Of a stretch of 64,000 nucleotides of DNA, positions 1 through 20,550 are shown one piece after another. The DNA is taken from NCBI GenBank assembly GCA_963831805.1, contig CAWHRN010000010.1, positions 1,107 to 65,106 on the forward strand. Direction: 5' to 3'. The DNA comes from an uncultured Verrucomicrobiae bacterium. GTDB taxonomy: Bacteria; Verrucomicrobiota; Verrucomicrobiia; Chthoniobacterales; UBA10450. Positions within the stretch are counted from its first letter, which is position 1; each line of letters begins with the position of its first letter. Below the pieces are notes generated by a model. It searched no databases. It was given only the letters and a program-made list of their open reading frames with translations, and had not been told where the DNA came from. The position numbers and the translations under genes were made by a program.

Positions 1-1842
1 CGACCGGATCGCCGACGAAGATCGAGGAGGCCGATCTCGACCCGGATCAGGACGGCGCTGCTCGAGAAGCTGCTCGGGCAAGGACTACGAGGTCATCACC
101 GCCGACGATCGGCTCGACAAGATCGCGGCCGATTTCGTCGAGCACTGCGCGACGCGGTGGGAATCCGGCAAGTCGATGCTCGTCTGCATCGACAAGATCA
201 CCTGCGCCCGGATGTACCAGCGCATCGTGCCGCGCTGGAAGGCAAAGCTGGCCGCAGGTGAAGGCGACGCATCTCAGTCGAAGGAAGCGGAAGCTGGCCG
301 CGGCTGACGACCCGGATGCGCGCGAGCGACTGGCCGAAGATGCTGCGATGGCTGCGCGGCCAGGCGCACTGGCTGGACGAGCACGATCATCGAGATCATC
401 ATCAGCGAGGCGCAGAACGAGGTCGCGCGACTTCAAGAAGTGGGGCTTCGACATCATCCCGCATCGCGCCCTGATGAAGCAGGGTTTCGAGACGCCGGAC
501 GGCAAGCGGGTCGATGTCGAAGACGCCTTCAAGGACCCGAAGCATCCGTTCCGCGTCGCGATCGTCTGCGCGATGTGGCTGACCGGCTTCGACGTGGAAT
601 GCCTTTCGACGCTCTACATCGACAAGCCGATGAAGGCGCACACGCTGATGCAGGCCATCGCGCGGGCGAACCGCGTCTATCCCGGCAAGGATTTCGGCCT
701 GATCGTCGATTACAACGGCATGCTGAAGAGCCTGCGCGAGGCGCTGGCGCAATATGCGCTCGGCGACGACGAGCGGCGGCGATGGCGGCGAGATCGTGGC
801 GCCGATCGAGGAGCGGGTGCAGGCGCTTCGTCGAGGCAATCGAAGCGACCGAGAAGCATCTGCGCGGCCTCGGCTTCGATCCGAGCCGCTGATCGGCGCG
901 AAGGGCTTCACGCGGATCGAGGCGCTGCGCGACGCGGTCGACGCGGTCTACACGACCGACGAGAGCGAAGCGGCGCTTCGAGATCATGGCGCGGCAGGTG
1001 TTCATCCGCTTCAAGGCGCTGCTCATGGAGCCGATCGGTCTGCGCCTATGCCGAGCGTCACGACAACATCGAGGCGATCTACAAGAAGCTCGAAGAGAGG
1101 CGCGACACGGCGGACGTGACCGAGCTGCTCAAGGAACTGCACCGGATCGTCAACGAGGCGATCCGGACGCAGGAGCCGGGCGACGATCAGGCCGACGGTC
1201 TTGCACGTTCGATCTCAGCCAGATCGACTTCGAGAAGCTGCGCGACGAGTTCGCCAAGAAAGTGTCGACGAAGGCAACCGCGCTCCAGGACATCCGGGAG
1301 ATCGTCGAGGAGAAGCTCGCCCAGATGCTGGCGCGCAACCCACATGCGGATGGACTACTACAAAGAAGTATCAGGAGATCATCGCCGACTACAATCGCGA
1401 GAAGGATCGCACCACCGTCGAGGAGACGTTTGCAAGGCTTACGAAACTCGCTTCCAAAATGGACGAAGAATCCGCACGGCACGTCCGCGAGGGATTATCT
1501 GAAGAAGAACTCGCGCTCTTCGATCTGCTGTTGAAGGAGAACATCTCGAAGATCGATCGCGAAAAGGTGAAGCAGGCGAGCAAAGCACTCCTCGCGTCTC
1601 TCGAAGCGCTATTGGCGTCGATGCCGAACTGGACGAGTAACGCCACGACTCAAGCCGATGTGAAGATTTTGGTACTGGACAATCTTTATACGTCATTGCC
1701 ACGTCCGCCGTTCACCGATCAGGAAACTGATGCGCTGGCAGAACGCTTTACAACTTCGTTTGGCAACAGAGCGAGAGCGGGCAACTGCGAGCAGCTTGAT
1801 TCAACAGGAGCGGCTCGATCCGTGCGAAATGATGCGAAGTAG
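1..1842 (+). pseudogene. hsdR: Type I restriction enzyme R subunit (HsdR), C-terminal part, cut by the window edge and broken by several frameshifts
   Basis: HsdR helicase and C-terminal motifs are spread over several + frames: DKITCARMYQRIVPRWK (from nt 1); AIVCAMWLTGFDVECLSTLYIDKPMKAHTLMQAIARANRV (ORF 258..); YAERHDNIEAIYKKLEERRD; IDFEKLRDEFAKK; YQEIIADYNREKDRTTVEETF...EEELALFDLLLKE (ORF 1201..1842). Confidence 0.8.
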
Positions 1843-2190
1843 GAGAGGCGACCGGCAGCCGAGCCTTCGCACTTCGTTGCCCGGCTCGAACACAACTTTA
1901 ACGATCGGGACGTGGATGGCCTGATCAAGCATTTTTCGCGATCCCGAGCGACGGAAAAGAGTTCTTCAAGGAATACAAAGAGATCGAGAAGCTCTACGAG
2001 ATCATCCCGCCCGATGCCTGATCGAGTCCTACGACGCTCCAAGCTCACAGGAGGGTGTAGATGAGAAACGGCGCGCCTCGTGAGCTCATAGACGAGAAAA
2101 AAGTAGGAGAGATCGCGCGCTCAGAATCGTGGTATTGAGAGATAGCCGGGGAACTCGATTCGCGCTTTACCGGGACATGAATCGATTCTT

Positions 2191-2491
2191 CGGCCTGCCC
2201 CGCTCCGCCCGCCGGGCAAGATTGCCAAGATTCACGCACTGACCCTCGTTCCTCCGCCCGCTTGAGTGTTGTTTGTAGTCCGGGGTCGAGGCTGTAGAGG
2301 CGGCCCGCTCCGCCGCGGAGGTGGGATCCACCTAGGAAGCCTGCGCTCGGCACGAGCGCCTCTACAGCCCAATGGCCGGCGGTGCATCCGGGGGGTGCTC
2401 ACGCCCAAACAGTTTCGGACCGATCCCGGGTAAGTGACGGCGCTCGCCTAGGGGAGCGAGTGCCGCCGGGAATCCTTCACGATCCCGTCCA
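2191..2491. repeat. Copy A of a ~300-bp repeat (see 15705..15960). Its right end is the last ~15 codons of a dockerin-like gene
   Basis: Near-identical by eye to 15705-16000. Starts CGGCCTGCCCCGCTCCGCCCGCCGGGCAAGAT. Contains a 10-bp closing stem GGCTGTAGAG/CTCTACAGCC (2290-2369) enclosing three short hairpins. Confidence 0.8.
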
Positions 2492-2793
2492 AAGCAAAAC
2501 GCAGAGGTCACGACTCAGAACCTCGAGGTTGCGAGCCGAAACCGGCAAGAGACCGCGCAGCGCCTCCGTGTTTCAAACCGAAACCGGGAAGCGACGAACC
2601 CAAACCGAGAGCGGCCATGCCGGCCGCAAACGTTTGATCAACCATTAACCACCAACGGGTGACGAAGCGCGTTGGTAGGCGTGCGACACACCTCGTCCAA
2701 CTTCTAAATTCGGATCGCTGAGCGGCGACCGCGTTTGTTTCGGCGTGAGTAGCTTGCGGTTCAGTCCGAGGTGCAGCATGCGTGTCAGGCATC

Positions 2794-2817
2794 CTGAGGA
2801 AAGGAACATAGTCTTTC
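2794..2817 (+). promoter_or_regulatory. Conserved upstream element, copy 1 (CTGAGGAAAGGAACATAGTCTTTC)
   Basis: Same 24-nt element as 4990-5013 and 7769-7792. Ends 32 nt before the ATG at 2850. Confidence 0.5.
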
Positions 2818-2849
2818 CCAAAATCGCCTCCGCCATCCGATGGTCCCTC

Positions 2850-3077
2850 ATGAAAACAGTATTTGAAAGAACCGAGACCATGAATGGCACGATTGAGGAG
2901 CAAGGCATCTCCCGGACAAGACCTGCAGTTTCGCCAGTCCGGCGCGGACCTGCGGCTTCTGTGTCTGGCATCATTGCCGAATGGCAGCAACACGGGCCGG
3001 CAACACTGGGCGGACAGGCTGGTCGAAAATTGCGCTTCGCCTTTGCCCCAGCGCAGTTCGTCACAATCGCGCGCTGA
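2850..3077 (+). CDS. Small hypothetical protein (75 aa)
   Basis: Internal ATG of ORF 2745..3077 (MKTVFERTETMNG...). Supported mainly by the conserved upstream element at the same spacing as for ndh and the efflux operon. Confidence 0.3.
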   Translation: MKTVFERTETMNGTIEEQGISRTRPAVSPVRRGPAASVSGIIAEWQQHGPATLGGQAGRKLRFAFAPAQFVTIAR

Positions 3078-3255
3078 AAGGAACCATCATGAACTCGCTA
3101 GGAATGAATCAGAAGAAATCGAGAAGGTGGTTTCGTCCGCGGCGGCGTCGGCACGACGCGATGCTGGTCTTAAGCATGTCGATTTTTAATTCGGGCAAGA
3201 GTTGGGATCGCATCTTCAGTCCCATCCCGCAGCGCGAGAACGTTTGGAGCTACTG

Positions 3256-3459
3256 ATGAATACAACCATATCGATGAGTTTCGCCGCGCCAGCTCCGGGT
3301 TACATCGCGCTGCAACATGAGATGCGCGACGCGATCCGCACCCAACACCCGGAATGGATTCAGCCAAATGGTGATTGCCCGACCTGCGATTCCTACGAAG
3401 CGCGTCTCGCGGAATTGCTTGGCCTGTCCTTGACGCTCGAACGCGGTCGCTCGCACTAA
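3256..3459 (+). CDS. Small hypothetical protein
   Basis: Internal ATG (MNTTISMSF...) of ORF 3202..3459. No recognisable motif. Confidence 0.25.
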   Translation: MNTTISMSFAAPAPGYIALQHEMRDAIRTQHPEWIQPNGDCPTCDSYEARLAELLGLSLTLERGRSH

Positions 3460-3463
3460 GCAA

Positions 3464-5030
3464 ATGAAAGCCGGGAGTGCGAGCAGATTCGCGGTTATTG
3501 TCGCGGCCGTGGCGGGCAGCGGTTGCGCGTCGATGCACGTTGCTTCGCCGGATCTTTTACGGCGAGACATTGTTGCGGCTGACTCTGCGTATCGCGAGCT
3601 CACGCCGAATGCTACGCGCGCCTACAACAACGCGCTCGAATCGATCACGCGGAATGTCGATCGGACCACCCCCGCGGTATTGCACCGCGAGCTAGACCAG
3701 GACGGTGTCACGGTCGAGGAGCCGGCGGTCGCACTGCCGCTCATTCGCTATCATGCGGTGCGGCCTTCGCCACAGGCCTGGGAGTCTTGCGCCATTGGTG
3801 CGCCGGTCGGTACTCGAGTACGACACCAGTCGCGCTTCGCTTTATCCGCGCGATGGGATGTTTCTCTCCGCCACGGCGATCTACCGGCGGGTGCACAACC
3901 GACCGCATCTTTCCTTCATTGCCGACAATAACAGCATCACACTCGGTCGATCGACCTACTCCTTCGTGACCGACCATGCGGCGGCGACATCCATGCTCGC
4001 GCATCGAGCACGGCGCGTGGCACAGAGCGGCCTAACGAACCTGCTGCACCCCGACATTCGGGCCAAAGGCGAGATTGTTCTGACCGCGCCCTACGATCCG
4101 AATAAGATCCCGATCTTGCTCGTGCACGGTTTGCAATCGACGCCAGTCACGTTCTTGAAACTAGTGACCGCCTTGGAAGGCGATCCGGCGATCGCGCGGC
4201 GCTTTCAGTTCTGGCACTTCTATTATAGTACCGGCACACCAGTTCTGCTGAACGCGCTCAGGTTGCGTGACGAGCTTGAAAGGACGGTTCACCTTGTCGA
4301 TCCCGACGATGATGATCCTGCGACGCACCGCATCGTGGTTGTGGGCCATAGCATGGGCGGACTGCTCGCGCATACGCTGGTCAGCTCGAGCGGCGATCGT
4401 TTGTGGAAGAGCCTCTTCCTTGTTCCCCCGGAGCAACTGCGGGGCGACGCGGAGACGATCCGGCTGTTGCAACGCATGTTGTTCTTCCGACGGAATCCGA
4501 GAGTTGCGCGCGCCATCTTCATCGCCACTCCACATCGCGGCAGCGCGATGGCCGATTCGTGGATCGGCGGCGTGGGGAAGTCGCTGATTCGCTTGCCTGA
4601 CAGGTTACAAACTGACTTTGCAGCTATCGCAGAAAAAAACGCGGAGGTAAGGACAGTAGAAGCAGCGGCTTTCTACAAACAATTGAACTTCACCTCCGTC
4701 CACACACTTTCGCCCCACGATCCGATATTGCTCGCGCTCGCGCGTCTGCCGATCGGTGCGCCTTTTCACAGCATCATCGGGCAACAACACAGCGGCGCCG
4801 AAAGCGATGGCGTCGTTCGTTATGCCAGCTCACACCTCGACGGTGCACGCTCCGAGCTGATCGTCCGTAGCGGCCACAATGCTTTTAACAATCCCGACGC
4901 GCGCAGAGAAGTGATCCGGATTCTTAGAGGGGAATTGCAGCATCGCCCTGCTCCGAAACAGGTGCGTGCCACCATGCTCGCTAACTATGCTGAGGAGAGA
5001 AAGATAGTCTTTCACAATAACACGAGGTAA
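3464..5030 (+). CDS. Alpha/beta-hydrolase (esterase/lipase-like) lipoprotein, one apparent frameshift near 3790
   Basis: N-terminus MKAGSASRFAVIVAAVAGSGC (lipobox-like) in ORF 3464... It continues in ORF 3705..5030 with the nucleophile elbow VVVGHSMGGLLAH and a late HRGS motif. Confidence 0.6.
4990..5013 (+). promoter_or_regulatory. Conserved upstream element, copy 2 (CTGAGGAGAGAAAGATAGTCTTTC)
   Basis: Ends 33 nt before the ndh ATG (5047). An AGGAG sits about 12 nt before the ATG. Confidence 0.5.
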
Positions 5031-5046
5031 GGCCAGGAGTTCTAAC

Positions 5047-6366
5047 ATGAAAAAGACACGAATCGTGATCGCCGGCGGCGGATTTGCCGGGCTCTACGCG
5101 GCGAAATATTTGGATAAGCATCTGGGGCCACGGCCGGACGTGGAAGTGACGCTGATCGCGCGGGAGAATTTCATCCTCTTCACGCCGATGTTGCATGAAG
5201 TCGCGGCGGGCGATCTCGCGCCTGCCGACATTGTAAATCCGCAGCGGCGGATTCTGCGCCATGTCCACGTGGTCGAAGCGGACGTGGAAGATGTTGACCT
5301 GAGCGCGCGAAAAGTCCGCTGCGCGCATGGGCTTGACCGCACCGAGCTTGAGTTCGAGTTCGACCATTTGCTGCTAGCGCTCGGTTCGGAGACAAACTTT
5401 TTCGACAACGCCGGCATTCGCGATTGGGCGGTGACGATGAAAAATCTGAGCGACGCGGCGCTGCTGCGAAATCGCATGGTGGCGTTTCTGGAAGAAGCGA
5501 CGTTGGAGAAAGACACCGCTGCGCGTCGTCAATGGCTCACCTTCGTGATCGCGGGCGGCGGATTTGCCGGCGCGGAAACGGCCGGGGCGGTCAATGATTT
5601 CGTGCGCGAGACTGCGAAGTTTTACCACGGCGTGGGCGACGAGGAGATTCGCGTCGTGGTGATTCATCCGGGCGAATACTTGTTGCCGGAGTTAGGCGAA
5701 GAGCTCGGTCGTTATGCCGAACGCAAAATGCTCGAGCGCAAAGTGGAGGTGATCAAAGGCGCGCGCGTGGCGAGCTACGATGGCTGGGTCGTCACGCTGA
5801 ACAACGGGCTGGCAATTCCCGCTGCGACCCTGATTTGGACTGCTGGAGTGAAACCCAGCGCGGTGGTCGCGTCTTTGCCGTGTCCGAAAGAGAAAGGTCG
5901 GATTCTTGCAGATCAATATCTGCAGGTTCCTGGATTCCCGGGGTTGTGGACGGCGGGCGATTGCGCGGCCGTTCCCGATGGCTACGAAACAGGAATCTTT
6001 TTCCCGCCCACCGCGCAACACGGAATGCGCGAGGCGCTGACCGCGGCAAAGAACATTGAGCGCAACATTCTCGGACAGTCGCTGAAGCCCTTCCGATATC
6101 GGACCATGGGGATGCTTGCGAGCATCGGCCATCACACCGGGGTAGCGAGTATGTTCGGGTTCAAGTTTTCCGGTTTCATCGCCTGGGCGATGTGGCGCAC
6201 GGTCTACTTAATGAAGCTCCCGCGCCTGGTGAAGAAACTGCGCGTGATGATGGCGTGGACGCTTGATCTTTTGTTCGGCCGCGACATCGAACAGATGATC
6301 ACCTTGCGCGATGTCGAAGAACTGAGCGAGCGCTGGGCCCGTCTTCGCGACCGACGCACGGCATAG
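5047..6366 (+). CDS. ndh: Type II NADH dehydrogenase (NDH-2, FAD-dependent pyridine nucleotide-disulfide oxidoreductase)
   Basis: Intact 439-aa ORF with two dinucleotide-binding motifs, IVIAGGGFAGLYAA and FVIAGGGFAGAETAG, plus TAGDCA. Confidence 0.85.
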   Translation: MKKTRIVIAGGGFAGLYAAKYLDKHLGPRPDVEVTLIARENFILFTPMLHEVAAGDLAPADIVNPQRRILRHVHVVEADVEDVDLSARKVRCAHGLDRTELEFEFDHLLLALGSETNFFDNAGIRDWAVTMKNLSDAALLRNRMVAFLEEATLEKDTAARRQWLTFVIAGGGFAGAETAGAVNDFVRETAKFYHGVGDEEIRVVVIHPGEYLLPELGEELGRYAERKMLERKVEVIKGARVASYDGWVVTLNNGLAIPAATLIWTAGVKPSAVVASLPCPKEKGRILADQYLQVPGFPGLWTAGDCAAVPDGYETGIFFPPTAQHGMREALTAAKNIERNILGQSLKPFRYRTMGMLASIGHHTGVASMFGFKFSGFIAWAMWRTVYLMKLPRLVKKLRVMMAWTLDLLFGRDIEQMITLRDVEELSERWARLRDRRTA

Positions 6367-6368
6367 CC

Positions 6369-6815
6369 ATGGACGCGCCGATCGTTACCGCGCTGGCCGG
6401 TATTTTGGGATCCATCTGTGGCGGTACCGCCAGTTTCGCGACCGCCTGGGTCACGCAAAAAACGGGTAGCAAGCGCAAAAAAATTCGGGCCGAGCTCGAC
6501 AAGCGCGAGGCGCTTTACGGTGAATTCATCAACGAATGTTCGAATCGCGTGATGGATTCGCTGGAGCGGAATCTGGACAAGCCGGAAACGTTGTTGGCGA
6601 TCTACGCTTTGCTCAATCGCATCCGGCTTTCGGCCTCAGCCGCAGTTCTCACTGAAGCGGAAGAGCTCGTCAAATTCATCATGGAGCAATACTTCGCGCC
6701 GAATGTTTCACTCGAAGAATTCCACGAACGCGTCCACTGCGGCGAGATCGATCCGCTCAAGCGCTTCAGCGAAAGCTGCCGGCAGGAGCTGAAGTCAATG
6801 CACGCCGCGGGTTAG
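6369..6815 (+). CDS. Hypothetical protein with N-terminal hydrophobic segment
   Basis: Intact 148-aa ORF starting 3 nt after the ndh stop. No recognisable domain. Confidence 0.45.
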   Translation: MDAPIVTALAGILGSICGGTASFATAWVTQKTGSKRKKIRAELDKREALYGEFINECSNRVMDSLERNLDKPETLLAIYALLNRIRLSASAAVLTEAEELVKFIMEQYFAPNVSLEEFHERVHCGEIDPLKRFSESCRQELKSMHAAG

Positions 6816-6833
6816 AAGTCCAGCCGCGATGGC

Positions 6834-7737
6834 CTAACGAATCGCGGCAAACGCGTCTTTCGCGCACAGGCAGAACTTCTCCGCAGCTGGACTGAGTTTT
6901 CCTTTTCGCGTGATGATTCCAACAACGACCCGTTTCGGTTCAGGCGTGAGCCGCACGCATTTGATCCGGTCGTTAAATGCATAATTGAACGCGTCCGATG
7001 TGAGCGCCACTCCCGCGCCGGCGCTGACAGAGGAAAAAACACCGGACCAACCATCCTGCTCCTCCGCGAGACGCGGCTTCTCGTTCACGCGCGCAAAGAT
7101 CGCGCTCAGATATTCGTGGTAACGCGGATAGTCTTCGTGCGTCAAGCCGATGAACGGTTCCCGCGCCGCATCGGCCAACGAAACGGATCGGCGGCCCGCG
7201 AACGGATGGTCGCTGGAAACCGCCAAACAAACGCGCCCATCGAACAATGGTTCGAACCGTAGCTCCTCGAGCGCATTCGCTTTGAGCGGTGGGAGAATGA
7301 TCGCAAGCTGCAAACGACCATCGCGCACTCCCGCCATGTTCTTCTCGACCGCCCAATCATGCACCTTCACTTTTACGTTCGGCATGGCTTTCTGATAAGC
7401 GCGAAGAAGCGTGGGCATGACCTGGCCAGTCGCGAGCGGCCAATCGCCGATGTGCAGTTCGGTCTCGCCCTTGCCGGCGATCGCGCGCACTTTTCCGACC
7501 GCGTCGTCAGTATGCCTTAAGAATCGCACGAGCTTCTTCGAGAAACGCGCGGCCGGCGTCGGTGAGGCGCACTGACTTGGCAGTGCGCTCGAGTAACTGC
7601 ACGCCCATCTCGTCTTCGAGATCGCGAATCTGGCGACTCAAAGACGGTTGCGAAACGTGCAGCCGTTGCATCGCGGCGCGCGAGACGTTTTCCATCTCGG
7701 CTACGGCAACGAAATAGCGCAGGTGCCTCAGTTCCAC
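6834..7737 (-). CDS. LysR-family transcriptional regulator, one apparent frameshift near 7510-7530
   Basis: HTH N-terminus [22 protein letters not shown]...[16 protein letters not shown] (ORF 7507..7737) plus a substrate-binding domain (ORF 6834..7529). Divergent from the efflux operon. Confidence 0.8.
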
Positions 7738-7768
7738 TGTGCCCGCAAGGGTATGCCCTCAACGCATG

Positions 7769-7792
7769 CTGAGGCAAGGAACATAGTCTTTC
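7769..7792 (+). promoter_or_regulatory. Conserved upstream element, copy 3 (CTGAGGCAAGGAACATAGTCTTTC)
   Basis: Lies in the lysR/efflux divergent intergenic region. Ends 33 nt before the ATG at 7826. Confidence 0.5.
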
Positions 7793-7825
7793 ACAGAGTG
7801 CTCCGGGCGAGCGGATCATTCCGCC

Positions 7826-8915
7826 ATGAAGATTTGTTATTGGAGGATCAGCCGATGCCTGCTGGCGGGATCGCTTGGCGGCATCCTTTCAGCGTGCGGC
7901 CACCAGGCCGCTCCGAGGTCGCTCGTCAAAGTAGAAGCGCAGCACGTTCAGCTAACTGAGACAGCGAAGAGGATAACTCTAACGGGCGAGATACGCGCGC
8001 AGGTTGAGTCGGACCTCGCTTTCCGCGTCAACGGTCGAATCACGCAACGGCTGGTGGATGTCGGCGACCATGTGTCTTCCGGCCAGATCCTGGCAAAGCT
8101 CGATCCGCATGAGCAGCAAGCCACGGTCGAGGTAAGGGAAGCCGAGGTTCGCGCCGCGGAAGCAGGATTGCGCAATGAGACCTCAAATTTGGACAGGCAG
8201 AAATTTTTGCTTTCTCGCAAATCGACTCCGCAATCGGAGTACGATCGCGCGGAGGAATCGTTCCGCACCGCGCAAAGCGCGCTCGAGGCCGCTAACGCTC
8301 ACCTTGGGACGGCGCGAGACGCTTTAGCGCAAACAGAACTGCGTGCCGATAAGCGCCGGAACGATCACGACCCGAAACGCGGAGGTCGGTCAGGTGGTGG
8401 AGGGGGCGCAACCTGTCTTCGTGCTGGCCCATGACGGTCCGCGCGACGCGGTCTTTAATGTGAGCCAATCGGTGCTCGGCAACCAGCCCGTCGATCGAAA
8501 CATTCCGATCGCGATCAAACTGGTTAGTGATCCGAGCATCTATACCACCGGCAAGGTGCACGAGGTCACGCCGACGCTCAGTGGCGCGGGAGGGACGCTT
8601 GCGGTGAAAGTGCGGCTGGATGACTCGCTCAAAGGTATGACGCTGGGCGCGGCGGTCGTTGGCGACGGGCCGTTAAGTTCGCAAAAAGCGATCACGCTTC
8701 CGCCGAGTTCGCTCGCATCAGTGGCGGGGCAGCCAGGTGTGTGGATCGTCGATCCCGCCACGCGCGTGGTATCTGCGCGACCGATCACGATAGCGCGCTA
8801 CGAAACAAACAGAGTCATTATCGCGGCCGGACTGCGGCCGGGAGACCTCGTGGTCACGCACGACGGGCAGAAGATGAGCCCACAACAGATGGTCGCCATC
8901 GCGGAGGTGCGCTAG
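7826..8915 (+). CDS. RND efflux periplasmic adaptor (MFP/HlyD family) 1, frameshift near 8345
   Basis: Lipoprotein-like N-terminus (LLAGSLGGILSAC), coiled-coil region, then AGTITTRNAEVGQVV... in ORF 8343..8915. Confidence 0.75.
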
Positions 8916-8917
8916 TC

Positions 8918-12900: not shown

Positions 12901-13085
12901 GCCGCGAAGGCTTCTGGGCTCCCATGGCGTTCGCGATGATGGGCGGAATCATCGTCGGTACTCTCCTGACGCTTCTGTTTCTGCCGTCACTCTATGTCGC
13001 GTGGTTCCGGGTTGCACCACCCGCGGAGTCAAAGGCAAAGCGGGCCGCGACCATCGCAGCTCCACCGCAGGCGTGCCTGGCGTGA
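9987..13085 (+). CDS. RND efflux transporter, inner-membrane permease (AcrB/HAE family)
   Basis: Intact 1032-aa ORF with 12-TM/two-large-loop architecture. Typical motifs GALIIALGLLVDDAMIAVE and AILGVLALIGILIRNSVIL. Confidence 0.9.
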   Translation: MKTNFNLSEWALRHRSLVWYFMAIFAVMGVMSYLHLGREEDPSFTIKTMLIQVQWPGASVDEMSKQVTERIERKLEELDVLDYTKSMTTPGQTIVFVYLRDSTKGRDVPNTWLRVRNMINDIRPEFPAGVTDPAYNDRFGDVFGNIYAFTSDGLSQRQLRDYVERARRDVLLIPNVGKVDLIGAQDEVIYLEFSVRQIAALGLNEQDILRTLQAQNAVIPSGVVEAGPERIVLRVGGQFISEESLRSINLRVNDRFFRLSDLVTIRRGYADPPQMLFRVNGKPAIGLAINMKTGANVLHFGEALKEKMNTIIGELPIGVGVHQVSDQPAIVEESVSQFTHALFEAVAIVLAVSFVSLGLRPGLVVALAIPLVLAMTFIALEYLGISLQRVSLGALIIALGLLVDDAMIAVEMMVSRLEVGDPLTKAATFVYTSTAFPMLTGTLVTVASFLPIGLNSSNAGEYTFSLFVVIAISLLLSWLVAVVFTPLLGVTLLPKALKKHEQKPSRVSATFRRLLDLAMRRAWLTVAISVGLFAVSLLGLKFVPQQFFPPSARSELVVDFTLPQNASIAATKAAMDRFERHLASNSDVDSWSSYVGQGAIRFVLAFDVQMPNPNYGQIIIVAKSVEARDRLRTRLKEIAHNEFIGVDIQAELLPLGPPAGRPVQYRVSGPDIQKVRELAQQLAAKIGSNPLLEDIGFDWMEPARVVKVEVMQDKARELGVTSETIAETLNSIVRGATVTQVRDDIYLVNVVARARDAERGSIETLQNLQLMAGNGKAIPLAAVANFRYELEQPIVWRRSRLPTVTVRAGIVGPTQPATIVQELSKRVDEFKRTLPVGYRIEIGGPVEESAKSQGPIAAIVPLMLFVMATILMIQLQSVQRLFMVLAVAPLGLIGVVAAMVPSGSPMGFVAILGVLALIGILIRNSVILIVQIEEHRREGMAAWAAVLDATMHRTRPIMLTAAAASLALIPICREGFWAPMAFAMMGGIIVGTLLTLLFLPSLYVAWFRVAPPAESKAKRAATIAAPPQACLA

Positions 13086-13278
13086 GTAACCGATGAGCCA
13101 CGATGCAACAAAGGTCGATGAAGGTTACAGATGCGCCAGACCCTAGTCGGGCAGTCAGATGGCGACTTTCTCGACCTTCTTCTCCCTCGCCGCGAGATAC
13201 GCTGCCGAAGCGCGAGACTTTAGGGGGTCAGAGTGGGGTTGCATTGTTTCTTCGGACAGTGTGGTAAGGGTATTTGAG

Positions 13279-13845
13279 TTAGCTGATTGCATTGTTAATT
13301 CGAGGGGAACAGTTGTTCAAATTGCAGCGGGGAGCGATAACCGAGCGCGCTGTGCAGCCGGGTGCGGTTATAGAAGGTCTCGATGTAATCAAAAATCGCG
13401 GTGCGGGCCTCGGCGCGGGTGGTGAAGCGCTGATGATAGACCAGCTCGTATTGAGGCTGCTCCAAAACGACTCGATAAAGGCGTTATCGTAGCAGTTCCC
13501 CGCGCGACTCACGGAAGCGAGCAGGCCATGCTCGGCCAGGACTTGGCGATAAGCGGCGCTGGCGAACTGCATGCCGCGATCGGAGTGGACGATGAGGGTT
13601 CTTCCCGGCGGCCGTTGGGCCAAGGCCATGCGCAGTGCTGCGATCGTGAGTGGAGCGTCGAGGATGGGACTCATGGCCCAGCCGACGACGCGCCGGCTGC
13701 AGAGGTCCAGGACTGCGACCAGATAAAGCCAGCCTTGGCCGGTCAGGACGCCGGTGGCATCGGTAACCCAAACCTGGCTCGGCGCCGCGGTCGCAGGTGA
13801 TTCGAGCGCCGCGATTAACGGACTGGTCACGATTCTCACGCCCAA
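13279..13845 (-). mobile_element. IS3-family transposase OrfB (DDE/rve core), N-terminally truncated and C-terminally frameshifted. No OrfA present
   Basis: VWVTDATGV...LYLVAVLDLCSRRVVGW...HSDRGMQFAS...NCYDNAFIESFW. The C-terminal ...LHSALGYRSPLQFEQLFPSN reads in another frame. Truncated at ~13841 where the dockerin-end repeat begins. Confidence 0.75.
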
Positions 13846-13884
13846 ACAGTTTCGGACCGATCTCGGGTAAGTGACCGTGCTCGC

Positions 13885-14082
13885 CTAGGGGAGCGAGTGC
13901 CGCCGGGAATCCTTCACGATCCCGTAGTCCGCGCGGTTCACGATCCCGTCCGCGTTCACATCGAGCCGGAAGTTGTCCGCCGTGGTTTCTTGCCCGCGGG
14001 CCGCGCTCGAAGCATTGTTCGGGAATCCGTGGCCAATCCAATCGAAGAGAGCGAAGACGCTTCGCTCGGGCAGTTTCACCAT
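13885..14082 (-). pseudogene. Orphan 3-prime fragment of a dockerin-like secreted protein gene (duplicate of the end of 15961..17232)
   Basis: Last 40 aa (ARGQETTADNFRLDVNADGIVNRADYGIVKDSRRHSLP) and the nucleotides 13841-14010 match 15912-16080 almost perfectly. Confidence 0.7.
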
Positions 14083-14205
14083 CGCCGCACCGAGATTTGC
14101 GGCAATCGTGAATTAGTCGAATCCCTCGCCACCGGTCAAGTTCGTGGACCAAGGGAAGAAGCGCGAGGGATGGCGCATTGCTGGGTCCGAAGCTAGGATG
14201 AATCC

Positions 14206-14502
14206 ATGAAACCAAGCCGCGAGCTTTTCCTCTCTCGTCTCCGTGAGGCGAAGCCCGCTCTGCAGGCCGAGTTTCCGCTGACGCGGCTGGCACTCTTTGG
14301 GTCCTACGCCATGGGCACGCAGGTCGCCGGGGAAAGCGACGTGGATATCCTGGTCGAGGTGGAACCTTCCATTGGCCTGCGTTTCGTCGCGTTGGCCGAG
14401 CGCCTGGAACAACTCCTCGGTGAACGGGTGGACCTCGTCTCGCGCCGGGCGATCAAACCCTCGCTCTGGGAGAGAATTGAGCCGGAGCTGATCGATGCCT
14501 GA
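14206..14502 (+). CDS. Nucleotidyltransferase-domain protein (MNT-type antitoxin-like). No HepT/DUF86 partner seen
   Basis: LFGSYAMGTQVAGESDVDILVEV minimal nucleotidyltransferase motif. Intact 98 aa. Confidence 0.7.
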   Translation: MKPSRELFLSRLREAKPALQAEFPLTRLALFGSYAMGTQVAGESDVDILVEVEPSIGLRFVALAERLEQLLGERVDLVSRRAIKPSLWERIEPELIDA

Positions 14503-14572
14503 ATTACAAGCAGGCTTAGAAACGCCGATTTCGCTAGGATAGGAATGGATCGGAGTTAAAATTGATTCGCCA

Positions 14573-14812
14573 ATGAAAACTTTTGCAACAACTGCGAGGG
14601 TGGCGGCCGACGGGACTCTCCAGATCGTGGCGCCATTGGAATTGGCAAACCAGAATGTGGACGTGGTCGTAAAGGAAAAGCGCGCCTCGGCCTCGGAGCG
14701 ATGGTCGGCCTGGGAACGATTATTTCAAGAAATTCGAAGCCGCCCGGAAAGTCGCAACATTACCGAAGAGGACATCGAGCGTGAGATTGCTGCCGTGCGC
14801 AGCGGTCGATGA
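14573..14812 (+). CDS. Putative antitoxin of the downstream PIN toxin
   Basis: 79-aa ORF overlapping the PIN gene start by 4 nt (ATGA). Small size and position only. Confidence 0.45.
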   Translation: MKTFATTARVAADGTLQIVAPLELANQNVDVVVKEKRASASERWSAWERLFQEIRSRPESRNITEEDIEREIAAVRSGR

Positions 14813-15219
14813 AAGTGGTGGTCGACACCAATGTGCTGATCTCCGCGGCGCTCCGCGATCAGCTTCCGGAAAAGGTGCTGGAAGCTGTCATCAAGCACGA
14901 TGATTGGGAATGGGTGCTGACGCCGGCGTTGCTGGGCGAGTATGCAGAGGTGATCCGGCGGCCACGGCTGCGGCTCGAACCTGTGGTGCAGGAGCGATGG
15001 CTGGCACTGGTGCGTGATCATTCCGTAATGGTGGAAACTTCGCCGCCGGAAATCGAGTTCATCCGGGACCGGCGCGATATCCTCGTTCTCCAAGCCGCCA
15101 TTGTAGGAGCGGCAGATTATCTGATCACCGGAGACAAGGACTTTGCGGACGCGCAGGCTCTAATTCCCAGCCGCATTATGAGCCCACAAGGCTTCGCGCG
15201 CCTGCAGGGGATCGTTTGA
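14809..15219 (+). CDS. PIN-domain toxin (putative ribonuclease)
   Basis: MKVVVDTNVLISA ... LITGDKDF, with the conserved acidic residues of PIN domains. Intact 136 aa. Confidence 0.75.
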   Translation: MKVVVDTNVLISAALRDQLPEKVLEAVIKHDDWEWVLTPALLGEYAEVIRRPRLRLEPVVQERWLALVRDHSVMVETSPPEIEFIRDRRDILVLQAAIVGAADYLITGDKDFADAQALIPSRIMSPQGFARLQGIV

Positions 15220-15704
15220 AATCACCGATGGCCGCACCCGGCGAACATAAGACGGTGCAAGCCCGCATTCTGCAGTACGCGCAGGAGACTGGCTGGACGA
15301 TTGTGTCCCGCGAGGAAGCGGAGCGGCGACGGGGGTTTGATCCGGACGTGCCGTCCGCTGATCGTTCCAAGAACCGTTCGCTTTTCTTCGACGACCTGCT
15401 CGACGCGAAGGTGGGGAATTCAACCTACACTACGCCGAAGCCGAGGGGGCGTTGCTCGGGCAGTTCCGCCATCTCCACAACGACATCTACGGCAACCGCG
15501 AGTTCGTGGAGCACCTGCGCAACCGGGGCAAGTTCTTCGATCACGAGGAGAAGCGCGAGCGCGACCTGGTCCTGATCGATTACGACAACCCGGCGCGAAC
15601 GTTTACGAAGTCACTGAGGAGTGGGCCTTTCACAACGGCCACTACGGCACGCGGGAGGATGTCGTCTTTCTCATTAACGGCATCCCGGTGCTGGCGATCG
15701 AGTG
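15216..15704 (+). pseudogene. hsdR: Type I restriction enzyme R subunit N-terminal fragment, two frameshifts, truncated by the repeat at 15705
   Basis: KTVQARILQYAQETGWTIV..., LGQFRHLHNDIYGNREFVEHLRNRGKFF..., EDVVFLINGIPVLAIEC (HsdR N-terminal nuclease-domain motif). The reading frame ends abruptly at the repeat boundary. Confidence 0.75.
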
Positions 15705-15960
15705 CGGCCTGCCCCGCTCCGCCCGCCGGGCAAGATGCCAAGATTCACGCACTGACCTCTCATTCCTCCTCCCGCTTGATGTTGTTTGTAGTCCGGGGTC
15801 CAGGCTGTAGAGGCGGCCCGCTCCGCCGCGGAGGTGGGATCCACCTGGGAAGCCGTGCGCTCGGCACGAGCGCCGCTACAGCCCGATGGCCGGCGGTGCA
15901 TCCGGGGGTGCTCACGCCCAAACAGTTTCGGACCGATCTCGGGTAAGTGACCGTGCTCGC
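15705..15960. repeat. Copy B of the ~300-bp structured repeat, immediately 3-prime of the dockerin-like gene on the minus strand
   Basis: Matches 2191-2440. The three-hairpin core is at 15803-15883 (closing stem GGCTGTAGAG / CGCTACAGCC with one mismatch). Confidence 0.8.
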
Positions 15961-17232
15961 CTAGGGGAGCGAGTGCCGCCGGGAATCCTTCACGATCCCG
16001 TAGTCCGCGCGGTTCACGATCCCGTCCGCGTTCACATCGAGCCGGAAGTTGTCCGCCGTGGTTTCTTGCCCGCGGGCCGCGCGGACGGCCGCGGCGTCAG
16101 CCAAGTCCACCACGCCGTTGCCATCCACGTCGCCGATCAGCTTGCCGTAATTCGCGGACGCGGTCGGGAGGTAATTCCCCACCTTGTCGTGCACCCCGTT
16201 GATCGTCACTGTGACTACCTGCCCGTCGCATCCGGTCGCGTCGATCTGCACCAGGACGTTTTTCGCGACGGTCGGATCGATGCCCTGCGATCCGTCGTTG
16301 TTTTCGATGCCCGCGTAGACCACCGTCCCGCAGCTCGTAGTCGCCCCGTCGAGATTGGTCAGATCAGCGTCGAATTTGAAGACAATAGAGTCGATTGGCG
16401 TGTCCCGGTCCTCGATCCCGAGACCGTCGGCCGGCAGCGGGATCTCAAACGTGCCGCGCTGGCCCTGTGCCTTTCTCGACGCCACGCTCTGGACGACCAG
16501 GAGACCGCCGTGGGCGTCGGCGCGGATGAGCCAGTTGCCGATGAGGCCGTAGTTTTCTATCGGCGCGACGGGCAGGTCGTTGTCGTTCAAGTCGTAGATA
16601 TCGCCTGTCGTGCCCCCGGCCACATAGCTGCGGTTGGAGTACGAGGGCGCCGTCTCGTCGAACGCGGCCGGAAATTGGCCAGCCCCGTGCGAGATAAAGA
16701 AACCAACAAAGAAGTTCGCCGTCGTCACGGTGGTAGGCGGGAAGTTGGTGGTGATAAAAGTGTTGGTTCCTTCATTCGCGATCACTCCCGAGGCCGTCGC
16801 CAGCACGACCGCGTCCGTCGGGCTGCCATCTCCGTTTGGATCGCTCCAAAGGATGGCCGTGTAGGGTAACCCATTGAGCGTCGGGTCCGGGAGCACGGGC
16901 GAGCCCCAGGCGAGCGAGACGTTGGTAATTATCTGATCGCCCGGGATCACCGCGAATTCATTCAGACAGATCAACTCCCCGCCGGAAGTGAACCCGATTG
17001 AATCCTCGGAGCTGCCGTCATCGATCATGTAGAGCGAGTCCGGGAAGAGCACCCGGTTAAACCCCGCGAAGCCGGAGCGAGACGGAAGACGATGCTGCGA
17101 GGCGGAGGAGAGTGCTGTCCCCGCTGGCGCGGAGAACGGGCAGAGGATAGCCAGGCACGCGATCGCGAGGAGGTGCTGCCGGGATGTAGGCTGCATGATC
17201 CGATCTGGCTGCCGAGCGCTCCCTGATGTCAA
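15961..17232 (-). CDS. Secreted protein with C-terminal beta-sandwich plus dockerin-like (EF-hand-type) module
   Basis: Signal-like N-terminus (LLAIACLAILCPFSAPAG). C-terminus GDVDGNGVVDLADAAAV...DVNADGIVNRADYGIV...HSLP shows two dockerin-type Ca-loop repeats. The true start may be the internal M at 17196. Confidence 0.7.
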   Translation of the reverse strand: MTSGSARQPDRIMQPTSRQHLLAIACLAILCPFSAPAGTALSSASQHRLPSRSGFAGFNRVLFPDSLYMIDDGSSEDSIGFTSGGELICLNEFAVIPGDQIITNVSLAWGSPVLPDPTLNGLPYTAILWSDPNGDGSPTDAVVLATASGVIANEGTNTFITTNFPPTTVTTANFFVGFFISHGAGQFPAAFDETAPSYSNRSYVAGGTTGDIYDLNDNDLPVAPIENYGLIGNWLIRADAHGGLLVVQSVASRKAQGQRGTFEIPLPADGLGIEDRDTPIDSIVFKFDADLTNLDGATTSCGTVVYAGIENNDGSQGIDPTVAKNVLVQIDATGCDGQVVTVTINGVHDKVGNYLPTASANYGKLIGDVDGNGVVDLADAAAVRAARGQETTADNFRLDVNADGIVNRADYGIVKDSRRHSLP

Positions 17233-17554: not shown

Positions 17555-18189
17555 ATGCCCAAAAGCACTATTGCCAAAGTGAAGTTCAACCTCTCCCGGC
17601 AGATCCCGATCCAGATCGACCAGGGAAATAACGTCGTCATGATGAGCACCGAGGTGATGTCCGCGACCGAGCCATTAATCGTGACTCTGAAGGCGTCCAA
17701 CACCGACCTGGAAGCCAAGATCGCGAATCTCCTCGCGGCGCGCGGCGCCCTGAAGCAGGCGAAATCGGAGCTACCGTAAGTGCGTCTGCGCAGCGAACCA
17801 GCTATAATAACCTCGGTAACTTCGTCCAGACCAGCTCGGACGGTCAGGAAACGTTCATTATCAGCTGTGGCTACGGCGTTCGCGCCGATGGCAGCCCGAA
17901 ACCCCCGGTGGAAGATGCGCCGGACAAACTGAGCACCCGGGTGAACGGCGTGCCGGGTGTGATCAACCTCAGCTGGGGCAAAGTGCAGTATGCCCGAAAC
18001 TATGAAGTGCAGACGACGACCGACCTGAGCGGCGCTACCGGCTGGACGAGCCAGACGGCAATGCCCAGCGCGGCCAAGCTCGATATCACAGGTCTCGTGA
18101 CGGGCACGAAGTATGCCCTGCGCGTGCGCGCCTGGGGTAACGGCATGCCCGGCCCGTTTAGCAGTCTCTGCCAGCAGATGGCTCCCTAA
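17555..18189 (+). CDS. Hypothetical protein with C-terminal fibronectin type III-like domain, apparent frameshift near 17780
   Basis: ORF 17513..17779 (MPKSTIAKVKF...) continues into ORF 17908..18189 (LSWGKVQYARNYEVQTTTDL...TGLVTGTKYALRVRAWG, FN3 pattern). Confidence 0.45.
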
Positions 18190-18449
18190 CGGAAGAAGGT
18201 CTCGGAAACAGAGTCAGTAAGTAGGCGATCGGCGCGCCCAGTGATGGGCGCGCCGTTTTGCTGTGCCCGGCGCGTAAGAAGTCGCGGCGTAACGCCAACA
18301 ACGCCTGCGTATTCTGCTTGACCTCGAGCCGCCGCACCGGGCATCATCTTTTTCAAATGCAATTCGGGAACCGATCCTCTTTGGTTCGCCGGGAAGTTCT
18401 CTGTCGAGGCTCTCTCCCCACCCCGTCGCTCGTCACTAGGTCTGATCTT

Positions 18450-20468
18450 ATGAAAGCTCACTCCATCGTTGTCAGTCTTATCGCCCTCGCGCTGAGCGCG
18501 GCGGTTCTCTCATCGTCTCCGCGTGCGCAGGCGCAGGTCGGGACGTTGACTACCCTGCACGCCTTTACGGGTAACACGGACCCCTCGCACCCGGACGGCG
18601 CGCACCCGGGCGCCCCGCTGGTGAAGGATACGGATGGTAACTTCTATGGGACGACCTTTGGCGGCGGCGAGAGTAACGTCGGCACGGTGTTCAAGATCAC
18701 ACCCGGCGGCGCGGTGACGATTCTTTACTCGTTCACGGGCGGAGAGGATGGGTTGTTCCCGACCGCCGGCCTGGTGAAAGCCAGCGACGGTAACTTCTAC
18801 GGTACCACCACCCAGAGCTTTAGTGGTGATGCGCTCGGGGGCACGGTCTTCCGGATAACACCAGCGGGGGCACTGACGACCGTGACTAAGTTCCCCGGCG
18901 GCGCGGGTGGGCAGAGTCCTTACCCCAGCCTGGTGCAGGGCAGCGATGGCTTGCTCTACGGAACGACATTTATCGGTGGCGGCGCGGGCAGCGGCTTCGG
19001 TCGAGGGACGGTCTTCACGATCGACCCGACCCAAACTCCTCCGATCGGGCCGACGTTCCTGCATTCGTTCAGCGGCGGCGCGGACGGCGGGGATGTCTAT
19101 GCCGGCGTGGTCGAGAGCACGGTCGATGGCAATTTCTACGGAACGACCAACGGCGGCGGGATCGTGAACAGCCTCTTTCCCAATGGCACCGGCACGGTGT
19201 TCAAGATCACGCCCGCGGGCACTCTGACCACTCTCCATACGTTCACCGGCGGTGCCGACGGGGCGAACCCGCGGGGCGGACTGGTGCAGGGCAGCGACGG
19301 CAATTTTTACGGGACAACCACGACCGGGGATGTCTCGTCGAGCACCGCGTCGGGCGGCACGGTCTTCAAGATCACGTCCAACGGTACTTTGACTACCCTC
19401 CACTCGCTGACTCTCACCGAAGGGTCGGTCCCGCTCGCCCCGCTCATTCAAGGCAGTGACGGTAACTTCTACGGCACTACTGAAACTGGCGGGGAGAGTG
19501 ATGGCACACTTTTCAAAGTCACGCCGACCGGAACTCTAACCGTCCTCTATACCTTCAATGGGACAGACGGGCGGCAGCCGCAGAGCGCCTTGTTCCAGGA
19601 CAGCGATGGCAGCTTCTATGGCACGACGGCTTTTGGCGGCGGCACTGAGGATGACGGCCAAGTCTTCCGGCTGGACGTCGCGGTGACACCCACCCCAGCC
19701 CGGCTGCAGAACATCTCGACTCGATTGCAGGTGTTAACCACTGATAAGGTTCTTATCGGCGGTTTCATTGTCACAGGGACAAATCCGAAAAAGGTCATTG
19801 TGCGCGCGCTCGGGCCGTCGTTACCAGTCCCCGGCCCACTGGCCGATCCGGTGCTGGAGTTACATAAGTTCGATGGCACCGTGGTCACCAACGATAACTG
19901 GCAATCCACACAAAAGAGCGAGATCGAGGCGACAAGTCTTCAGCCGCACAATGACCTCGAATCTGCGATCGTCGCCACCCTCGATCCTGGCAACTACACG
20001 GCGATCGTGAGCGGAAAGAACGGCGGCACCGGCATCGGCCTCGTGGAAGCCTACGATCTCGACGAGACGGGTGATTCCCAACTGGCAAACATCAGCACGC
20101 GCGGTTTCGTCGATACCGGAGACGATGTCTTGATCGGCGGCTTTATCGCAGGGCCGGCGGCAAACGGCAGTTCCAGCGTGCTGGTGCGGGCGATCGGCCC
20201 GTCGCTGCCGCTCTCTGATGGCCTGCCCGATCCCACCCTTGAGCTCCATGACGTCAACGGCGTGATCCTTGCGACCAACGACAACTGGAAGACGGCGGAC
20301 GACGGCACGAGCCAGCAGGCGGAAATCGAGGCAACGCATCTCAAACCGGCCAACGATCTGGAATCGGCCATTCTCGCCACTGTCGCACCGGGCAATTACA
20401 CGGCGATTGTCCGCGGCAAGAACAACGAAACAGGCGTTGGGTTGGTCGAGGTTTACAATCTGCAGTAA
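18450..20468 (+). CDS. GloVer (Gloeobacter/Verrucomicrobia) tandem-repeat secreted protein with two C-terminal ~110-aa repeats
   Basis: Signal peptide MKAHSIVVSLIALALSAAVLSSSPRAQA. About nine repeats of the G.LTTLH.F.G..DG..P...L.....GNFYGTT..GG..G.GTVFKITP type. Duplicated LANISTRGFV...LPDPTLELHD...DNWK...EIEAT...LESAI...PGNYTAIV...GVGLVE module. Confidence 0.8.
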   Translation: MKAHSIVVSLIALALSAAVLSSSPRAQAQVGTLTTLHAFTGNTDPSHPDGAHPGAPLVKDTDGNFYGTTFGGGESNVGTVFKITPGGAVTILYSFTGGEDGLFPTAGLVKASDGNFYGTTTQSFSGDALGGTVFRITPAGALTTVTKFPGGAGGQSPYPSLVQGSDGLLYGTTFIGGGAGSGFGRGTVFTIDPTQTPPIGPTFLHSFSGGADGGDVYAGVVESTVDGNFYGTTNGGGIVNSLFPNGTGTVFKITPAGTLTTLHTFTGGADGANPRGGLVQGSDGNFYGTTTTGDVSSSTASGGTVFKITSNGTLTTLHSLTLTEGSVPLAPLIQGSDGNFYGTTETGGESDGTLFKVTPTGTLTVLYTFNGTDGRQPQSALFQDSDGSFYGTTAFGGGTEDDGQVFRLDVAVTPTPARLQNISTRLQVLTTDKVLIGGFIVTGTNPKKVIVRALGPSLPVPGPLADPVLELHKFDGTVVTNDNWQSTQKSEIEATSLQPHNDLESAIVATLDPGNYTAIVSGKNGGTGIGLVEAYDLDETGDSQLANISTRGFVDTGDDVLIGGFIAGPAANGSSSVLVRAIGPSLPLSDGLPDPTLELHDVNGVILATNDNWKTADDGTSQQAEIEATHLKPANDLESAILATVAPGNYTAIVRGKNNETGVGLVEVYNLQ

Positions 20469-20550
20469 CCGAGTGTGACTCGGGCCTGCGGCCATCCGCC
20501 TGCTTGGAGCACACCTGCCTAACGACTATAAGTCCGGGCGACGGCTAACC

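Follow-up and report, generated by a model that had tools for sequence, protein, structure and literature searches.

The motif-poor block and its border

The first 20,516 nucleotides of a 64,000-nt stretch of contig CAWHRN010000010.1, a stretch referred to throughout as the window, are poor in a 9-nt motif that is frequent in the remainder. By k-mer counting this motif, GCCTAACGA (reverse complement TCGTTAGGC), is by far the commonest 9-mer of the window. It has 46 exact copies, of which 44 fall between 20517 and 64000 and 2 in the block to the left, which we will call the desert. A preliminary description of this DNA had noticed the imbalance and had proposed that the desert is an acquired island, foreign to the rest of the window, or else an assembly chimera. 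The evidence presented below makes it probable that the desert is part of the flexible accessory genome of soil Chthoniobacterales, situated at a synteny breakpoint beside a conserved housekeeping cluster. The block and its border are defined by the following features.

1-20516, unstranded: motif-poor block, at least 20.5 kb and extending beyond the left window edge, apparently a mosaic of accessory modules
18450-20468, plus strand: gene for a GloVer (TIGR03803-type) tandem-repeat secreted protein with internal repeats, the last gene of the desert
20469-20550, unstranded: right border spacer of 82 nt between the convergent GloVer gene (ending at 20468) and BNR gene (stop at 20551), with a motif copy at 20517-20525
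20551-22966, minus strand: BNR/sortilin-repeat gene (Pfam match), frameshifted, the first syntenic gene of the conserved side

Within the desert are found a type I restriction gene (hsdR) at the left edge, an efflux cassette, a zone of rearranged remnants and toxin-antitoxin (TA) genes, genes for secreted proteins and an fn3 open reading frame (ORF). For the most part this is the content listed in the preliminary description (NDH-2, LysR, RND pump, IS3, MNT, PIN and secreted proteins), with the exception of the hsdR gene at 1-1842, which had been called broken. The helicase motifs of this gene are readable from base 1, showing that it is cut by the window edge, rather than demonstrably broken, and that the motif-poor block continues to the left. 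The conserved side carries housekeeping genes, which encode the BNR protein, a 2-oxoacid dehydrogenase, DinB, enoyl-CoA hydratase, HMG-CoA lyase and a carboxyltransferase (genes of leucine catabolism are among this cluster), as well as ManC, TruA, NuoB, PhoH, CTP synthase, Sua5, PurK and others.

The two desert copies of GCCTAACGA start at 4030 and 6832, and the first copy on the motif-rich side starts at 20517. The 7-mer core CCTAACG is present 3 times in the desert, including a variant at 18186, versus 56 times in the rest. These counts confirm the earlier tally of two exact copies plus the 18186 variant in the first 20.5 kb and about 56 core copies thereafter. The density of GCCTAACGA is 0.10 per kb in the desert versus 1.0 per kb in the rest, so that the roughly ten-fold depletion reported previously holds when counted computationally. 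Markov models predict about 0.1-0.8 copies per part. On the motif-rich side 44 copies were observed versus about 0.3-0.8 expected, a more than 50-fold enrichment, and the 2 copies observed in the desert are also above the expected value of 0.12.

In a two-rate Poisson model of the GCCTAACGA positions, the change point of maximum likelihood was base 20516, with a log-likelihood ratio of 11.05, a value reached by 0 of 300 permutations. This base lies in the 82-nt spacer between the two convergent genes, in agreement with the abrupt onset of motif-rich sequence at 20517, in a convergent intergenic region, that had been described. A chance fluctuation of motif density along a uniform sequence might be considered, and indeed gaps of 4-5 kb between copies exist within the motif-rich part too. 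However, the depletion of the desert has a binomial P=4.8e-6, the longest GCCTAACGA-free gap measures 13,685 nt (P~8e-4), and none of the permutations attained the change-point likelihood. The probability of a chance origin is therefore negligible.

The motif is oriented without strand bias (22 plus and 24 minus), has no fixed position relative to genes and shows weak flank preferences. Copies inside genes occupy every stop-free frame and run either with or against the gene, and the motif is enriched between called genes, where 17 of the 46 copies lie. The use of both orientations and of every stop-free frame, together with the intergenic copies, indicates that GCCTAACGA is a DNA-level signal without polarity. 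Two other explanations of the motif were discarded. A peptide motif (PNE/PND) is ruled out by the occurrence of copies in four frame/orientation classes and between genes, and a polarity like that of Chi or KOPS by the absence of strand bias. Overlapping or tandem copies (CTAACGCCTAACGA) were noted at 63489-63506 and 45075-45092, and several pairs lie less than 200 nt apart, some of them inverted (for example 41701/41864, 42936/43069 and 63416/63498).

Synteny ends at the BNR stop codon

The E1-beta protein, used as query in a scan, places the window in the Chthoniobacterales (Verrucomicrobiota), the best relatives being 88% identical in amino acid (aa) sequence. Related loci (L numbers) were compared with the window. 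In L003 and L002 the BNR genes have 75-88% aa identity to that of the window, and in L003 the gene is one ORF of 798 aa. Nucleotide homology to both of these loci stops exactly at the BNR stop codon (about 20551), and past this codon L003 and L002 differ from each other too. To the right, the genes from 22918 onward are colinear in up to 15 relatives. To the left, the desert genes are absent from all 24 related loci, which were centred on the neighbouring operon, and none of the left-flank genes of the 11 relatives tested was found anywhere in the window. The left neighbourhood of the conserved operon varies across the clade, with relatives carrying their own unique DNA there. For example, the position in L003 that is equivalent to the desert (253-5613) encodes a DUF3592 membrane protein and two paralogous PATR (autotransporter-type repeat) proteins. 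These genes are unique to L003 and are motif-free for 5.7 kb.

The preliminary description had looked to synteny to locate the other border of the presumed island and an attachment (att) or tRNA site. The comparison did reveal that no desert gene is present in the 24 loci and that the break falls at the BNR stop, but the left border lies outside the window and the window contains no tRNA. Neither does it contain any Rfam element that might correspond to an att site or to the ~320-nt repeat described below. No integrase or att site is visible in the window, in which the sole recombinase is a truncated IS3 DDE remnant, located in the interior of the desert. No repeat is present at the right border and none is common to the desert and the motif-rich part, and a consensus scan detected neither a terminator nor a promoter at this border.

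These results bear on the possibility that the long-read metagenome contig is a chimera, with a join near 20.5 kb between two genomes, possibly those of related Chthoniobacterales in one sample. In favour of such a chimera, this is an error-prone assembly with frameshifts throughout, the contig is 99 kb long, and no repeat or other sequence links the two parts. Also, k-mers cannot separate related genomes; the loci of other species give tetranucleotide correlations of about 0.94 as well. However, assemblers mis-join inside genes or at repeats, and the junction considered here is at neither of these but in the 82-nt spacer that separates two convergent genes, both complete. The similar frameshift density on the two sides provides a weak hint of equal coverage. 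Further, L003 and L002 switch to unrelated, motif-poor DNA at the same gene end, and because the breakpoint is shared, a natural variable locus explains the break. Even if there were a mis-join, the left part would remain motif-poor accessory DNA. We regard a chimera as unlikely.

A separate observation was made on the conserved side. In L003 (9068-12142) and L005 (9074-12145) the E1-alpha, E1-beta and E2 portions of the 2-oxoacid dehydrogenase form one continuous ORF of about 1024 aa. This three-component fusion is unusual; the window copy, at 23706-26780, has about five frame changes.

Base composition and codon usage

The preliminary description had regarded the desert as foreign to the rest of the window and had suggested that GC content, tetranucleotide frequencies and codon usage be compared across 20.5 kb. 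This comparison does not single out the desert. The GC content is 0.603 in the desert, 0.622 at 20.5-47 kb and 0.666 at 47-64 kb. When motif copies were masked, the tetranucleotide correlation (r) was 0.94 between the desert and the adjacent core and 0.95 between the two motif-rich parts. Codon usage and the GC content of third codon positions (GC3) do differ slightly between the desert (GC3 of 0.725) and the adjacent core (0.763), with a permutation P=0.0005, but a larger shift separates one motif-rich part from the other (0.763 vs 0.826, P=0.001). Likewise, the codon distance is 0.55 between the desert and the middle part and 0.58 between the middle and the high-GC part. The difference in codon usage is therefore within the range of the motif-rich DNA, and the notion of a block foreign to its surroundings is not sustained. 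As a point in its own right, there is a step at about 47000, inside the motif-rich part, where GC rises from 0.62 to 0.67 and GC3 from 0.76 to 0.83. This step exceeds the one between the desert and the core, and the motif is frequent on both sides of it.

A rival proposal for the sharp depletion is that of a recently acquired, classical genomic island from a donor outside the motif-bearing clade, which would have had no time to gain the host signal. The IS3 remnant, the TA genes and the restriction-gene pieces are in keeping with this proposal, as are the absence of the block from the syntenic position in relatives and its slightly lower GC and GC3. On the other hand, the tetranucleotide correlation with the adjacent core is as high as that between the motif-rich parts, and the codon distance is no larger than that between mid- and high-GC core. 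There is no over-represented oligomer of donor type particular to the desert, its plasmid similarity is limited to a generic RND match (71%) to Rhizobium plasmids, and it has no phage match. As noted, integrase, tRNA and att site are lacking within the window, beyond which the left border lies. Additional evidence against a foreign and recent origin comes from the relatives of the cargo.

Relatives of the cargo within the clade

The cassette and its surroundings comprise the following features.

2778-2820, plus strand: operator/promoter-like box 1, an ATGC-N7-GCAT dyad plus GCTGAGGnAAGGAACATAGTCTTTC, upstream of an unannotated ORF
3705-5030, plus strand: alpha/beta-hydrolase gene (Pfam Abhydrolase_6), containing the motif copy at 4030-4038
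4974-5016, plus strand: operator/promoter-like box 2, upstream of NDH-2
5047-13085, plus strand: cassette of NDH-2, small ORF, LysR, two HlyD genes and RND (Pfam matches), colinear with L079, with the motif copy at 6832-6840
5047-6366, plus strand: type II NADH dehydrogenase (NDH-2), cassette member
6369-6815, plus strand: small ORF, cassette member
6834-7784, minus strand: LysR, cassette member, divergent from the HlyD genes
7753-7795, plus strand: operator/promoter-like box 3, upstream of the first HlyD gene and divergent from LysR
7826-8915 and 8918-9984, plus strand: two HlyD adaptors, cassette members
9987-13085, plus strand: RND pump, cassette member

The 43-nt box is present in 3 copies in the window vs 0 expected, each about 35-40 nt before an ATG, and the box upstream of HlyD is kept in L078 and L079. 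It is probably the operator/promoter of the adjacent LysR regulator, and if so, a small self-contained regulon would link the type II NADH dehydrogenase to the RND pump. An upstream element common to the cargo genes had been described before; such a box exists, but it precedes three genes and not all of the cargo.

When metagenomes were scanned with the RND pump, nine close contigs emerged with 85-96% aa identity, after which identity drops to about 70%. Positions 2321-10344 of L079 are colinear with 5047-13077 of the window at 91.8% nucleotide identity, so that the match begins exactly at the start codon of NDH-2 and ends at the stop of the pump gene. L078 matches the window at 7083-13135 with 92.8% identity, and the other seven contigs with 81-86%. 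The flanks of the cassette differ in every contig. For the five of the nine contigs that are long enough, the tetranucleotide r to the window core is 0.89-0.96; for reference, r averages 0.94 for known Chthoniobacterales relatives and is 0.84 for Opitutales and 0.82 for the distant pump contigs. There are 0 exact motifs in the cassette DNA of the nine contigs, and L079 and L082 carry copies in the flanks. At the site that corresponds to the window copy at 6832, L079 has GCCTAACAA and L086 has CCTAACGT. Judging from these variants, 6832 is an old, shared, motif-like site that has been degraded in L079 and L086.

The GloVer gene, whose homologues are named 'choice-of-anchor tandem repeat GloVer-containing protein [Chthoniobacterales]', leads to a similar picture. 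Orthologues with 72-78% aa identity occur in contigs of Chthoniobacterales metagenome-assembled genomes (MAGs), where the gene is motif-free, has other neighbours and lies in DNA of low local motif density. Since Chthoniobacterales-like contigs supply the closest relatives of the GloVer gene as well as of the pump cassette (72-96% aa, with the next tier at about 70%), the cargo appears to come from the clade's own accessory pool, as established for these two modules. The cassette orthologues have diverged by up to 19% in nucleotide sequence and hence are not recent. As gauged by this divergence, which is comparable to that of core genes, the desert cargo is a long-standing resident of the clade and not a recent arrival. 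In view of these data we consider the recent island unlikely. What stands of the acquired island is non-syntenic accessory DNA that starts at a gene boundary and carries mobile and defence remnants; its description as foreign, recent or a classical island does not.

Genuine remnants and assembly frameshifts

Defence genes, mobile remnants and repeats, with one of the secreted-protein genes, are located in the desert as follows.

1-1842, plus strand: 3' half of type I restriction gene hsdR (T1R_D3-like 1e-20, T1RH-like_C 9e-11)
2191-2508, plus strand: copy A of a ~320-nt repeat, ~97% identical to 15705-16020
13279-13845, minus strand: IS3-family transposase OrfB remnant (Pfam rve 8e-24), with a frameshifted rve_2 tail at 13295-13465 (2e-12)
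13835-14006, plus strand: duplicate of the dockerin gene 3' end and downstream DNA, 172 nt, 100% identical to 15911-16082, abutting the IS3 remnant
13897-14196, plus strand: short fragment resembling the hsdR N-terminus, paralogous to 15442-15559 (repeat families D8 and D14, 74-79% identity)
14206-14502, plus strand: MNT-type nucleotidyltransferase, a TA component (Pfam NTP_transf_2 2e-11)
14573-15219, plus strand: antitoxin-like small ORF (14573-14812) and PIN toxin gene (14809-15219; PIN_3 3e-16)
15216-15704, plus strand: hsdR N-terminal remnant (HSDR_N 2e-5, borderline at 25.0 bits versus a cut-off of 25.1)
15705-16020, plus strand: copy B of the ~320-nt repeat, overlapping the dockerin gene 3' end
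15961-17232, minus strand: gene for a secreted protein with a C-terminal dockerin domain (Pfam Dockerin_1 5e-7)

The hsdR gene at the left edge retains the helicase C-terminal motifs, domain 3 and the C-terminal domain, with frameshifts of the assembly type. The fragment at 13897-14196 is assigned to hsdR by similarity, having no Pfam match of its own. The antitoxin-like ORF and the PIN gene overlap by 4 nt, and such an overlap is typical of TA pairs. The IS3 remnant consists of the rve core, without OrfA and without the N-terminus. The duplicated gene ends and the repeat of about 300 bp in the preliminary description are real, measuring 172 nt at 100% and ~320 nt at ~97% identity, respectively. 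The ~320-nt repeat represents the 3' end and downstream region of paralogous minus-strand genes, and the hsdR remnant at 15216-15704 ends exactly where copy B starts (15705). Copy A (2191) follows the 3' half of hsdR at a distance of 350 nt. A rearrangement mediated by the ~320-nt repeat may have split an hsdR gene or duplicated it.

Not all that had been taken as debris deserves the name. Comparison with the intact ORFs of relatives showed that frame changes are as frequent in core genes (BNR, the 2-oxoacid dehydrogenase with about five, DinB and CTP synthase at 43581-45082) as in desert genes (LysR and both HlyD genes), with 20551-29000 and 7500-10000 as examples of affected stretches. Frameshift density is alike on both sides of 20.5 kb, roughly one per 1.5-2 kb, and the window is evidently an error-prone, unpolished-looking long-read assembly. 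Because the density is equal in core genes, the split ORFs are no evidence of decay, and their interpretation as pseudogenes was rejected. This part of the supposed debris is frameshift noise; the real remnants are those with missing or relocated domains, namely the IS3 fragment, the hsdR N-terminal pieces and the duplicated gene ends. A practical warning follows, that 'broken genes' in this error-prone assembly are no evidence of decay.

The motif in related loci

Most Chthoniobacterales-like loci (L001-L021, L034 and L050) carry GCCTAACGA at densities of 0.1-1.8 per kb, L044 has none, and the loci of Opitutales, Puniceicoccales and others, with 0-1 copy each, essentially lack it. Many copies are kept at orthologous positions, in up to 10 species, and others are lineage-specific. 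Identity across species amounts to 90% in the 9-mer itself, compared with 81% in the flanking sequence and 82% in randomly chosen 9-mers (P=2e-9). For a comparison of shared with unique DNA, a tblastx mask at 1e-8 proved too permissive, calling even the desert shared, and stricter criteria were used instead. By these criteria the loci of 13 relatives have 0.88 copies of GCCTAACGA per kb in syntenic DNA vs 0.46 per kb in locus-unique DNA (P=7e-5). This contrast is conservative, because the 'unique' DNA includes core genes that have merely moved. Several relatives possess deserts of 4.7-6.6 kb, with at most one motif copy, in their unique DNA.

Motif copies also turn over. Two copies that are common in relatives (at locus positions of about 10098 and 10622) are degraded in the E1-beta gene of the window, at 24740 and 25264. 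The degraded forms are GCCT--CGA, accompanied by a compensating 2-nt insertion, and CCGTTCGGC. One of the two may be an assembly indel. These sites show that motif copies do get lost.

The pattern in relatives is relevant to a further explanation, in which the desert is native and lacks the motif for a functional reason without any role for gene flow. The motif might, for example, be bound or processed in the course of housekeeping functions of the chromosome, such as those of a nucleoid protein, of repair or recombination hotspots or of regulation, and be neutral or selected against in the genes of the desert. Conservation in place beyond that of the flanks and enrichment between genes would be expected of any functional site, and the pump cassette has remained motif-free through 81-93% nucleotide identity. 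However, the absence of strand bias and of a fixed position relative to genes, and the occurrence in every stop-free frame, speak against roles of the Chi/KOPS or promoter type. Moreover, depletion tracks non-synteny in 13 other loci of unrelated gene content, which points to gene flow or conservation rather than to the function of particular genes. This explanation is improbable in our estimation.

As a whole, the results support the assignment of the desert to the flexible accessory genome of the clade. Three points weigh against this assignment. First, no motifs were gained by the cassette, although its divergence (81-93% nucleotide identity) matches that of core genes. A simple model based on residence time therefore fails, and accessory genes would have to be excluded from the motif-generating process. 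Second, each relative was seen only over ±10 kb, so that DNA classed as unique may include rearranged core genes. Third, the placement of the cassette-bearing contigs in the clade relies on k-mer signatures plus a few motif copies instead of marker genes.

A model for the desert, and comparison with known systems

We propose that the desert would be a mosaic of several modules and not one element. The modules would include the type I restriction gene at the left edge; a regulon of NDH-2, alpha/beta-hydrolase and two-adaptor RND pump, controlled by LysR and with its own box; the scrambled zone, with the IS3 remnant, the MNT and PIN TA genes, the hsdR remnants and the duplicated gene ends; and the secreted dockerin and GloVer proteins. 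The block may have been assembled partly by IS-mediated rearrangement, since the IS3 remnant abuts a duplicated gene end and the hsdR fragments are truncated at repeat borders. The modules would circulate within the same clade, in unrelated neighbourhoods. GCCTAACGA, for its part, would persist only in DNA that is conserved, passed on vertically and subject to homologous exchange, where copies are old and surpass their flanks in conservation. Genes that move between contexts or are patchily present would neither accumulate nor keep it. We infer that the contrast between core and accessory DNA is made by a process, linked to recombination or uptake, that acts on core DNA, and that the desert marks 'accessory versus core' rather than 'recent foreign versus native'.

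Regions of genome plasticity, or flexible genomic islands, are known at synteny breakpoints from pangenome studies of many bacteria. The desert is like these in that different strain- or species-specific gene sets occupy the same position beside a conserved gene. It resembles them as well in its surface or secreted proteins, efflux, restriction-modification and TA genes, IS remnants and host-like composition. It is unlike flexible islands in general in being flagged additionally by the lack of a clade-wide 9-mer, and one of its borders is visible. Clusters of restriction-modification and toxin-antitoxin systems constitute defence islands. An hsdR gene with its remnants and the MNT and PIN TA genes, within a few kb of an IS remnant, recall such islands, but no complete defence system is visible in the window, where hsdM and hsdS were not seen and hsdR runs off the edge. 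Also unlike a defence island, the block consists largely of genes for metabolism, efflux and secreted proteins.

What might the motif itself be? The DNA uptake sequence (DUS) of Neisseria and the uptake signal sequence (USS) of the Pasteurellaceae are reported to occur in excess in the core genome, where they are highly conserved, and to be rare in accessory genes and absent from recently acquired ones (Treangen et al. 2008, PMC2397512). Use has been made of this pattern to locate integrated elements (Hughes-Games et al. 2020, PMC7371117). Like the DUS and USS of the Neisseriaceae and Pasteurellaceae, GCCTAACGA is a short, lineage-specific oligomer that occurs about once per kb without restriction as to strand or frame. 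Its orthologous copies are strongly conserved, it is over-represented in the colinear core and rare in accessory genes, and the desert coincides with mobile, TA and restriction genes, as do regions poor in DUS or USS. There are also differences. A role in DNA uptake is putative for GCCTAACGA, and the phylum is the Verrucomicrobiota. Unlike islands poor in DUS or USS, the desert has cargo that is old and internal to the clade, and no machinery of an integrative and conjugative element (ICE) and no integrase were seen. The analogy to uptake sequences drawn in the preliminary description nevertheless fits, in that the motif is clade-wide, conserved in place and depleted in the locus-unique DNA of relatives.

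The contrast between core and accessory DNA, the positional conservation, the independence of strand and frame, the intergenic enrichment and the restriction to one clade all lead to the suggestion that GCCTAACGA may be a DNA-uptake signal, or another signal linked to recombination, of this clade of soil Chthoniobacterales. By analogy with the established systems we offer this as a tentative possibility. To our knowledge no DUS/USS-type system is known in the Verrucomicrobiota, and GCCTAACGA, if an uptake signal, would be the first. A literature search on GCCTAACGA, and on uptake sequences or competence in Verrucomicrobia or Chthoniobacter, found nothing relevant. The motif-rich part encodes a PilT-like type II/IV secretion ATPase (T2SSE, 7e-48) at 53529-54647 on the minus strand. 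It could be part of a type IV pilus, the usual DNA-uptake machine, but nothing ties this ATPase to the motif.

The desert itself is an ordinary region of the flexible genome, and its value is as a control for the motif, in which capacity it strengthens the case for an uptake-type signal. If GCCTAACGA were such a signal, motif density would provide a reference-free means of separating core from accessory DNA, and it could flag islands or mis-joins in MAGs. Deserts would delimit the part of the genome that escapes homogenisation mediated by transformation, and natural transformation would be indicated in an abundant, mostly uncultured lineage of soil bacteria.

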